A stretch of 1,669 nucleotides of DNA from Naegleria gruberi (Eukaryota): NCBI GenBank assembly GCA_000004985.1, contig GG739353.1. One strand, given 5' to 3'. The notes under the pieces are model-generated. The model did not search any database, was not told the DNA's origin, and saw only the letters and a program-made list of their open reading frames with translations. The position numbers were made by a program, and so were the translations under genes. Shown piece after piece: positions 1-1,669 of this stretch. Numbering within the stretch: the first letter of the stretch is position 1; every line of letters begins with the position of its first letter.

Positions 1-150
1 ACTGTTGTTATCATGACCACCAAACACAACCAAATAATCACCATAAATCGTTGATGATTGACCATAACGTGGAGTGATAATCTCATCACTACTAGGCTCC
101 GATTTTCGTTTCAATAGACACGAGGAGTGGAAGTTACGAGCACTTGGTCC
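1..150 (-). CDS. Kelch-repeat protein, downstream reading-frame segment (frame Y, shifted by 1 nt relative to 153-326); continues beyond the left edge
   Basis: Reverse-complement translation of 150..1 gives GPSARNFHSSCLLKRKSEPSSDEIITPRYGQSSTIYGDYLVVFGGHDNNS. It has 50 open codons and shows kelch hallmarks again (P-s-a-R-n-f-H-S-s ... iY-g-d-yLvVFGG). The spacing from the previous R-t-G-H-S is about 49 residues, which is one kelch blade. It is preceded in frame by TAA TAG (plus 151-156). It is not contiguous with frame X unless 1 nt is inserted near 148-155. Confidence 0.6.
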
Positions 151-152
151 CT

Positions 153-326
153 ATTATGTATTGTCTTGTTTTCCCACTTTTGTGAGGAAACATCCACTTG
201 AATGAGATCGTTTACTAGTTCGGAATTGACAAAGCCTCCGAAAAGATAAACTTTATCGTTATGAAAGATACCACTATGACCAGTACGAGAGGTCGAGGCA
301 ACGAAGATGTTAATATTAACATTTTT
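153..326 (-). CDS. Kelch-repeat protein, 5'-proximal reading-frame segment (frame X); possibly a pseudogene or frameshifted
   Basis: Reverse-complement translation gives KNVNINIFVASTSRTGHSGIFHNDKVYLFGGFVNSELVNDLIQVDVSSQKWENKTIHN. This is a textbook kelch blade: P-x-a-R-x-G-H-S..., then v-Y-v-F-G-G, then n-D-l, then k-W. The frame is open from just after an in-frame TGA (plus 327-329) to a TGA at plus 111-113. It contains no in-frame ATG. Confidence 0.6.
309..320. repeat. Perfect 12-bp palindrome GTTAATATTAAC
   Basis: The sequence is its own reverse complement. It lies in the 5'-proximal part of the kelch frame-X ORF and overlaps an out-of-frame ATG on the minus strand (plus 319-321). Confidence 0.45.
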
Positions 327-494: not shown

Positions 495-716
495 TATTAA
501 TATTCATATGTCATGGGTGATGAAATTAAATTTCATAAAGAAATTAAAAAGTTATTGTTGGCAGTTATCATTAATTAATCTTAAAAAAGATGAGTGAGTA
601 AATTTAAGGAAAGATTTTTAGTACCGTTCATTATAACGCTGATTACAATAGTTTTACCAAAATTAAGACAATAATATCTAAAAATGAAATTTTTAATTAA
701 ATTCAAATTTGATATA

Positions 717-1125: not shown

Positions 1126-1173
1126 ATGACAACAACTCTTGTACAAGACCCTATTGTTTGGGTTGACATGGAG
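1126..1173 (+). CDS. REXO2: Oligoribonuclease (Orn/REXO2/Rex2 family, DEDDh exonuclease), exon 1 (initiator ATG)
   Basis: ATG at 1126 sits in an A-rich context (aaaaatATGa) with an in-frame TAA directly upstream at 1120-1122. It encodes MTTTLVQDPIVWVDME. The WVDME segment matches the conserved N-terminal Exo I motif of oligoribonucleases (E. coli Orn ...LIWIDLEMTGLD, human REXO2 ...MVWVDLEMTGLD, both recalled from memory). It carries the catalytic D (1165-1167) and E (1171-1173). The exon ends right before GTAAGA. Confidence 0.8.
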
Positions 1174-1223
1174 GTAAGATATAATAGCCACTGACCACAA
1201 TTCACACAATTAATTCTAAATAG
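1174..1223 (+). other. Intron 1 of the oligoribonuclease gene (50 nt, GT-AG, phase 0)
   Basis: Donor is GTAAGA at 1174. A CTGAC branch-point-like motif lies at 1191-1195, 29 nt from the 3' end. Acceptor is AAATAG ending at 1223. Splicing joins ...VDME in frame to MTGLD... at 1224 and rebuilds the conserved D-x-E-MTGLD motif. Without the intron, the exon-2 ORF lacks the catalytic Asp and Glu. Confidence 0.8.
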
Positions 1224-1534
1224 ATGACAGGATTAGATATTGATTCCGATCACATTTTGGAAATTGCAGTCATTATTACTGATGGTAATTTAAATATTAT
1301 TGCACAATTGGATTCATTGATTGTTCATCAGAGTGACTCTGTTTTAGATAATATGAATGATTGGTGTAAACAGCATCATGGTGATAGTGGTTTGACTGCT
1401 GCCGTTCGGAAGAGCACACTCTCCATTCAGCAAGTTGAGGATACAGTCTTGGATTTTGTTAAACACTATGTTGCATCGGAGAGATTGGCTCCATTGGCTG
1501 GTAACAGTGTTTATTGTGATAGATTATTTATGAA
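1224..1534 (+). CDS. REXO2: Oligoribonuclease exon 2 (core DEDDh domain)
   Basis: This matches the supplied ORF 1224..1559 up to 1534. MTGLDIDSDHILEIAVIITDGNLNIIAQ...DWCKQHHGDSGLTAAVRKS...LAPLAGNSVYCDRLFMK aligns along its whole length with Orn/REXO2 (human ...[30 protein letters not shown]...DWCKEHHGKSGLTKAV...LAGNSVHEDKKFLDKY, recalled from memory). It includes the Exo II Asp (GNSVYCD). The ORF's last residues (YVNFLLF, then stop at 1557-1559) have no homology and are read as intron read-through. The preferred exon end is 1534, before GTATGT. An alternative end at 1538 is described in the findings. Confidence 0.75.
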
Positions 1535-1579
1535 GTATGTTAATTTCTTATTATTTTAATAATATTTTAATTATTTTAG
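1535..1579 (+). other. Intron 2 of the oligoribonuclease gene (45 nt, GTATGT...TTTTAG, phase 2), preferred model
   Basis: Donor GTATGT at 1535 is canonical. The acceptor is the pyrimidine-rich tract ttattttAG ending at 1579. Intron length is a multiple of 3, and both flanking exons use the same genomic frame. Splicing removes the in-frame TAA (1557-1559) and joins ...CDRLFMK to [29 protein letters not shown], which restores the conserved C-terminal H-x4-D (Exo III) motif. An alternative with the same intron length is 1539..1583 (donor GTTAAT, acceptor AAG). It would give ...FMKY-EMKRL... but has weak splice signals. Confidence 0.6.
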
Positions 1580-1669
1580 AAAGGAAATGAAAAGATTAGA
1601 TGAATATTTGCATTATAGAATTATTGATGTTTCTTCAATTAAAGAGCTTGCAAGAAGATGGTCACCTGA
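1580..1669 (+). CDS. REXO2: Oligoribonuclease exon 3 (partial, runs off the right window edge)
   Basis: Taking aa (1533-1534) + a (1580) as the phase-2 junction codon, the exon translates as [30 protein letters not shown] and continues past 1669. This matches E. coli ...[29 protein letters not shown] and human ...[28 protein letters not shown] (recalled from memory). It contains the DEDDh His and the final Asp. Confidence 0.75.

Follow-up and report, generated by a model that had tools for sequence, protein, structure and literature searches.

A partial oligoribonuclease gene with two predicted introns on a short, probably redundant scaffold of Naegleria gruberi

The stretch of DNA analysed here (the window, 1669 bp) is an entire scaffold from the nuclear genome of Naegleria gruberi (Heterolobosea) and has a GC content of 29%. 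It carries parts of two genes that lie head-to-head on either side of an AT-rich spacer, and a single public gene model covers a segment of one of them. The features are as follows.

1-322, minus strand: 5' part of a Kelch-repeat gene, unannotated on the scaffold, a copy of NAEGRDRAFT_63109; ATG at 322-320
323-1125: AT-rich spacer separating the two head-to-head genes, about 23.5% GC as measured over 321-1125
1126-1173, plus strand: exon 1, an ATG followed by MTTTLVQDPIVWVDME; bears the Exo I catalytic residues Asp14 and Glu16
1174-1223, plus strand: intron 1, 50 nt, phase 0, GTAAGA...CTGAC...AAATAG, 30% GC
1224-1534, plus strand: exon 2, MTGLD...GNSVYCDRLFM(K); bears the Leu20 wedge, Trp63, Ser111 of the phosphate cap and Exo II Asp115
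1535-1579, plus strand: intron 2, 45 nt, phase 2, GTATGT...TTATTTTAG (ending TTTTAG), 9% GC, with two in-frame stops
1580-1669, plus strand: exon 3, partial, (K) plus 29 residues plus GA; bears Tyr132, Arg133 and Ser138 of the phosphate cap
1224-1559, plus strand: public model NAEGRDRAFT_77014 (XP_002668076.1, D2W6H0; P0002), 111 aa, consisting of exon 2 and eight read-through codons

With a probability of roughly 0.93, we read positions 1126-1669 (+) as the 5' part (149 of some 185 codons) of an Orn/REXO2-type oligoribonuclease gene that is interrupted by two introns and lies on a redundant scaffold. Two short, canonical GT-AG spliceosomal introns, one of 50 nt in phase 0 and the other of 45 nt in phase 2, would split the coding sequence. 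A spliced mRNA would then join Exo I Asp14/Glu16 from exon 1 to Leu20, Trp63, Ser111 and Asp115 from exon 2, and to Tyr132/Arg133/Ser138 from exon 3. The 111-aa public model would be an artefact of taking the longest open reading frame (ORF) without splicing. The unplaced 1.67-kb scaffold itself would be redundant: it would represent another haplotype, or else a recent duplicate, of a pair of Kelch and Orn genes whose intact members, NAEGRDRAFT_63109 and NAEGRDRAFT_30577, appear to sit together on one 850-kb scaffold.

The promoter regions of both genes presumably lie within the spacer. Its only ORFs are short chance ones, and its only repeats are likewise short, AT-rich and attributable to chance. 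ARAGORN found neither a tRNA nor a tmRNA in the spacer, and an Rfam scan gave no match near its gathering score. The only Rfam match, to tmRNA at 526-572 (-), reached 14.1 bits against a gathering score of 47 (E=0.004), and we treated it as a chance match of low-complexity, AT-rich spacer sequence.

A preliminary description, made from the letters alone, had reported an ORF of 111 aa at 1224-1559 (+), running from MTGLD to YVNFLLF and a stop, and had proposed that it is only the middle of a longer gene. The ORF lies exactly there, and the other positions given in the description proved to be correct as well. Ahead of it, within 1126-1223, are the in-frame ATG, the WVDME motif and the GTAAGA...CTGAC...AAATAG series that the description had named, and beyond it the GTATGT donor and the TTTTAG acceptor delimit 45 nt, with the C-terminal part following in 1580-1669. 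An in-frame TAA at 1093-1095 precedes the ATG at 1126 with no other ATG between them, so that 1126 is the first possible start in the window sequence. The CTGAC of intron 1 is placed 30 nt before the acceptor. If read through, the frame of exon 1 meets a TGA at 1192-1194 inside intron 1 and then a TAG that spans the 3' junction (1222-1224). The last two bases of exon 2 (up to 1534) begin a Lys codon. Exon 3 is open to the last base of the window, where the end of the scaffold cuts the gene with no stop codon in the window. About 36 codons, including those for Exo III His161/Asp166, fall past the scaffold end, and the window holds about 80% of the coding sequence (149 of 185 codons).

The same gene exists elsewhere in the N. 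gruberi assembly in complete form. NAEGRDRAFT_30577 (P0121, XP_002681696.1, D2V2T3) is a 185-aa 'predicted protein' encoded on a scaffold of 850,158 bp. It has the same N-terminus as the spliced window product, is identical to it at 147 of 149 residues, and belongs to the same 90% cluster as the 111-aa model. It reads ...VDME|MTGLD... and ...LFMK|KEMK..., that is, the same residues across both junctions as the window, and the trailing GA of exon 3 agrees with its Glu150. It also shows the C-terminus that is absent from the window, ETLTKVVKTGAHRALDDIKESIEELKVYKKHLFKLE, in which Exo III appears as H161-RAL-D-D166. The only difference between the two versions is at residues 81-82, where NAEGRDRAFT_30577 has SF and the window has Thr81-Leu82 (ACA CTC, 1416-1421). 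These positions vary in other Naegleria and heterolobosean orthologues, and hence neither version is obviously defective.

We scored alternative products of the locus with a hidden Markov model (HMM) built from 26 non-Naegleria Orn/REXO2 proteins (alignment A1). The three-exon product scored 251.1 bits, as compared with 163.1 for exon 2, 165.1 for the unspliced ORF, 186.8 for exons 1 and 2, and 227.5 for exons 2 and 3. In an exhaustive scan of the 58 stop-free GT..AG combinations, the proposed junctions (1174/1223 and 1535/1579) ranked first. As a null, each terminal exon was replaced by every equally long stop-free piece taken from elsewhere in the window. For exon 1 (48-nt pieces, n=760), the null had a mean of 229.0 bits, a standard deviation of 1.3 and a maximum of 236.8; for exon 3 (90-nt pieces, n=321), the corresponding values were 189.5, 1.7 and 196.6, both nulls being set against 251.1. 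Exon 1 contributes about 24 bits of the family score, whereas the best null piece contributes about 9. The three-exon match is far above chance.

Independent alignments place the exons identically. With the intronless orthologues from Willaertia and Acrasis and with the Naegleria proteins as queries, tblastn found exons 1, 2 and 3 each at the predicted place; exon 1 matched residues 1-16 of NAEGRDRAFT_30577 at 100% and also matched the N-termini of the Willaertia and Acrasis Orn proteins. Removal of the GT...AG introns restores one open frame that is colinear with the intronless homologues. Thus, the homology that had been expected for the translations of 1126-1173 and 1580-1669 is present, both by tblastn and by HMM score against the null, and the spliced alignment that had been suggested as a check (tblastn, the GT..AG scan and alignments to PDB structures) supports 1126-1173 / 1224-1534 / 1580-1669 throughout, which establishes the exon/intron structure at the level of sequence. 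A single alternative junction came close. The pair 1539/1583 (LFMKY|EMK) scored 248.1 against 251.1 bits, the sole near-tie, but has weak signals (GTTAAT...AGAAAG). It is ruled out because the corresponding extension would run into a stop in N. fowleri (AAG TAA) and because NAEGRDRAFT_30577 reads LFMKKEMK.

The product is a member of the oligoribonuclease family. On the NCBIfam equivalog model NF003765 (cutoff 106 bits), the spliced 149 aa scored 197.6 bits versus 121.4 for the unspliced ORF, with profile positions 5-146 of 189 covered colinearly; on Pfam RNase_T (PF00929, cutoff 24 bits), the scores were 96.2 and 57.4, respectively. Alignment to human REXO2 (PDB 6J80) gave E=7e-49 and 55% identity over 141 columns, with residues 9-149 on residues 7-146 and no gap at either junction. 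Against solved structures of bacterial Orn (E. coli 1YTA/2IGI, V. cholerae 6N6A), E-values were about 1e-39 to 1e-40; the match to E. coli 1YTA had E=5e-39. Hence, the statement that both junctions rebuild motifs of Orn and REXO2 was correct.

In E. coli numbering, the Exo motifs are D12/E14 (D-x-E) for Exo I, D112 within GNS..D for Exo II, and H158/D163 (H-x4-D) for Exo III. In the window product, Exo I is present as WVD14-M-E16, encoded by exon 1, at Asp and Glu columns that are invariant in the 26 homologues. Exo II is present as G109-N-S111-V-Y-C-D115, encoded by exon 2, and its Asp column is also invariant. V. cholerae Orn residues L18, S108, Y129, R130 and S135 align to window residues L20, S111, Y132, R133 and S138, and REXO2 W64 aligns to window W63. 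The Exo I and Exo II residues, the Leu wedge, the Trp and the Ser/Tyr/Arg/Ser cap are therefore common to the window product and human REXO2 (PDB 6J80, 6J7Y, 6RCI, 6N6I, 6STY). Unlike the long human REXO2 isoform, which has a mitochondrial presequence, the Naegleria proteins begin just 8-11 residues ahead of the WVD motif, and since the window product is without an N-terminal extension, a location in the cytosol is a reasonable guess.

The phosphate cap (Ser108, Tyr129, Arg130, Ser135), the Leu18 wedge and the base-stacking Trp set Orn apart from RNase T/ExoI (PMC6613908). The cap narrows the active site and the Leu is wedged between two bases, and both Orn and REXO2 have 5'-phosphorylated dinucleotides as their specialised substrate (PMC6613908, PMC6900737). 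The window Orn and human REXO2 presumably share the same dinucleotide-degrading mechanism (PMC6900737, PMC6613908). The enzyme would then be a DEDDh 3'-5' exonuclease that clears the final RNA decay products, above all 5'-phosphorylated dinucleotides. We infer this activity and substrate, as well as the splicing of the gene in vivo, the latter from homology, splice signals and comparative conservation.

The public model, the scaffold's only one, is a 'predicted protein' identical (100%) to the translation of the ORF at 1224-1559. Missing from it are the Asp/Glu pair of Exo I, all but one of the four phosphate-cap residues, and Exo III. Mutational data show that D12A and R130A abolish activity (PMC6613908); by analogy, the 111-aa product would be inactive, much as the preliminary description had held when it called a protein from this ORF truncated and catalytically dead. 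We considered whether that ORF might be the true product, the gene being unspliced or intron 2 being normally retained, so that a truncated protein is made. Intron retention is common in protists, which counts in favour of this idea, as do the existence of the public model itself and the fact that the ORF alone passes both the Pfam and the NCBIfam cutoffs. Such a product, however, would be without those catalytic and cap residues and would end in seven residues (YVNFLLF) that match nothing, whereas the flanking pieces add 86 bits, join without gaps and are bounded by canonical GT-AG signals. Moreover, the intron positions are common to two congeners, and the sister locus, NAEGRDRAFT_30577, is modelled as the spliced form. 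Together, these observations make an unspliced 111-aa product very improbable, and we conclude that NAEGRDRAFT_77014 is an annotation artefact.

The intron positions are conserved within the genus. N. fowleri FDP41_005942 and N. lovaniensis C9374_011470 are each 74% identical to the window product. The intron after WVDME is in phase 0 in all three species and measures 50 nt in N. gruberi, 162 nt in N. fowleri and 112 nt in N. lovaniensis; the intron within LFMK|K is in phase 2 and measures 45, 180 and 114 nt, respectively. A third, phase-1 intron at IIT|DG is found in N. fowleri (L001 5227-5336) and N. lovaniensis (L004 3216-3286) but is absent from N. gruberi, and hence represents a gain or loss within the genus Naegleria. 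Taken together, the introns of the two congeners are 71-180 nt long, as compared with 45-50 nt in N. gruberi. The upstream neighbour of Orn in both congeners is a different gene, on the plus strand. The last exon is uninterrupted to the stop in N. fowleri and N. lovaniensis; by analogy, therefore, the complete N. gruberi gene most likely consists of three exons. The description of the gene as 'three-exon' stands for the window, with its 149 of 185 codons, while for the whole gene the count comes from the congeners. Outside the genus, Orn is intronless in Willaertia magna (552 nt for 183 aa) and in Acrasis kona (546 nt for 181 aa), and neither orthologue shows a gap at either junction when aligned.

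These comparisons also bear on the idea that the Orn-like sequence derives from bacterial contamination or a recent horizontal transfer, with the 'introns' as artefacts. In its favour, many bacteria have Orn, and the matches include several proteins from bacterial or archaeal metagenome-assembled genomes (MAGs). The best matches, though, are to Naegleria (76-100%), Willaertia and Acrasis, followed by animals and fungi; the frame-breaking stops are removed by GT-AG splicing alone; the neighbour is a Naegleria Kelch gene; and the GC content is 29%. Bacterial Orn genes are intronless, whereas the gene in the window needs two splicing events. A foreign origin is thus already refuted, and we assign it a negligible likelihood. 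The claim that this is a eukaryotic, intron-containing gene is borne out, its junctions being the best of 58 and their positions and phases being shared with N. fowleri and N. lovaniensis. A 32-nt word from exon 2 had no match among the metagenome contigs scanned, and the library of papers that was searched contained none naming Naegleria together with oligoribonuclease.

A separate observation concerns the N. fowleri annotation. The Orn model XP_044559902.1 (FDP41_005942), of 171 aa, begins at the Met of 'DME', 14 codons late. An in-frame ATG 42 nt upstream (L001 4959-5006, VFQX01000048.1) gives MNSQVLNDPIVWVDME, which restores the Exo I catalytic Asp. This ATG is just 6 nt past the stop of an 861-aa gene, a closeness that may have led the annotation pipeline to pass it over. 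In N. lovaniensis, the model has the complete N-terminus. Extension of XP_044559902.1 by 14 codons would thus regain the catalytic Asp.

The left end of the window relates the scaffold to the locus of NAEGRDRAFT_30577. With its frames joined, the fragment at 1-322 (-) matched Pfam PF24681 at 68 bits and Kelch_1 at 46 bits. Its closest near-full match in a phmmer search was the 367-aa N. gruberi protein NAEGRDRAFT_63109 (P0126, D2V2T2). An earlier, word-indexed protein search with the Kelch fragment (1-320) had given no match. This was a false negative, as a full HMMER scan did find an N. gruberi protein with which the fragment has identical stretches longer than 20 residues in common; a null from a word-indexed protein search does not amount to absence. 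Since NAEGRDRAFT_63109 and NAEGRDRAFT_30577 are both assigned to a contig of one length, 850,158 bp, and have consecutive UniProt accessions (D2V2T2 and D2V2T3), the window appears to duplicate a head-to-head Kelch/Orn pair, with a spacer of about 0.8 kb.

The Kelch copy is disrupted relative to NAEGRDRAFT_63109. Frame-by-frame tblastn revealed two frame breaks, one at a 10-nt gap after MLILTSSLP (at about 295) and the other at 150, where a G run has lost 1 nt. Further differences are a 102-nt gap following KRKS, two gaps and one insertion of a single codon each, and five substitutions in about 106 aligned residues. A short intron does not account for the frame break near 150: just one GT..AG pair would shift the frame there, a 41-nt one (GTTTCC...AATAG), and we rejected it because it would remove a conserved repeat Trp that is retained in NAEGRDRAFT_63109. 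The Kelch copy could be a pseudogene, as an allele or a duplicate, or could reflect poor sequence at the scaffold end; likewise, the scaffold as a whole could be a decaying duplicate or simply of poor quality. A third near-identical Kelch copy (P0274) is found at one end of a scaffold of 7.5 kb.

The origin of the scaffold is a question within our preferred reading and leaves the gene structure aside. One answer is that the scaffold is a real second copy, having arisen by segmental duplication or as a haplotype that has diverged strongly, with Orn intact and Kelch a pseudogene, rather than an error-bearing haplotig. The uneven distribution of damage points this way, with six indels in the 322 nt of the Kelch part, among them the clean 102-nt gap and the two frame breaks, versus none in the Orn exons, where just two of 149 residues differ; the third Kelch copy on the 7.5-kb scaffold is also consistent with it. 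Substitution levels, by contrast, do not differ significantly between Kelch and Orn (5/106 versus 2/149, Fisher p=0.13), and the 1-nt loss sits in a G run. Losses of this kind are typical where bases are miscalled near the end of a Sanger scaffold of low coverage. Furthermore, N. gruberi is described as heterozygous in a passage of PMC9928731 that cites Fritz-Laylin 2010, and leftover haplotigs are therefore to be expected. We regard a real second copy as possible but on balance doubtful. That selection keeps Orn intact in an extra copy or strongly diverged haplotype while the adjacent Kelch gene decays, we consider unlikely. If there were such an extra copy, strain NEG-M would have two expressed Orn variants differing at residues 81-82. 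The window is best read as a leftover fragment, from an alternative haplotype or a duplicate, possibly with sequence errors at its left end.

The enzyme belongs to a well-studied family, its introns are unremarkable, and a correct full-length model of the gene already exists in this genome; our analysis is a correction of a gene model rather than new biology: knowledge of Orn/REXO2 and of Naegleria introns is unchanged, and the value of the finding lies in curation. For XP_002668076.1 / D2W6H0, we suggest either substituting a partial model with three exons or marking the entry as a redundant fragment of NAEGRDRAFT_30577. Left uncorrected, the entry would lead proteome-based inventories of Naegleria to count a catalytically dead 'paralogue'.
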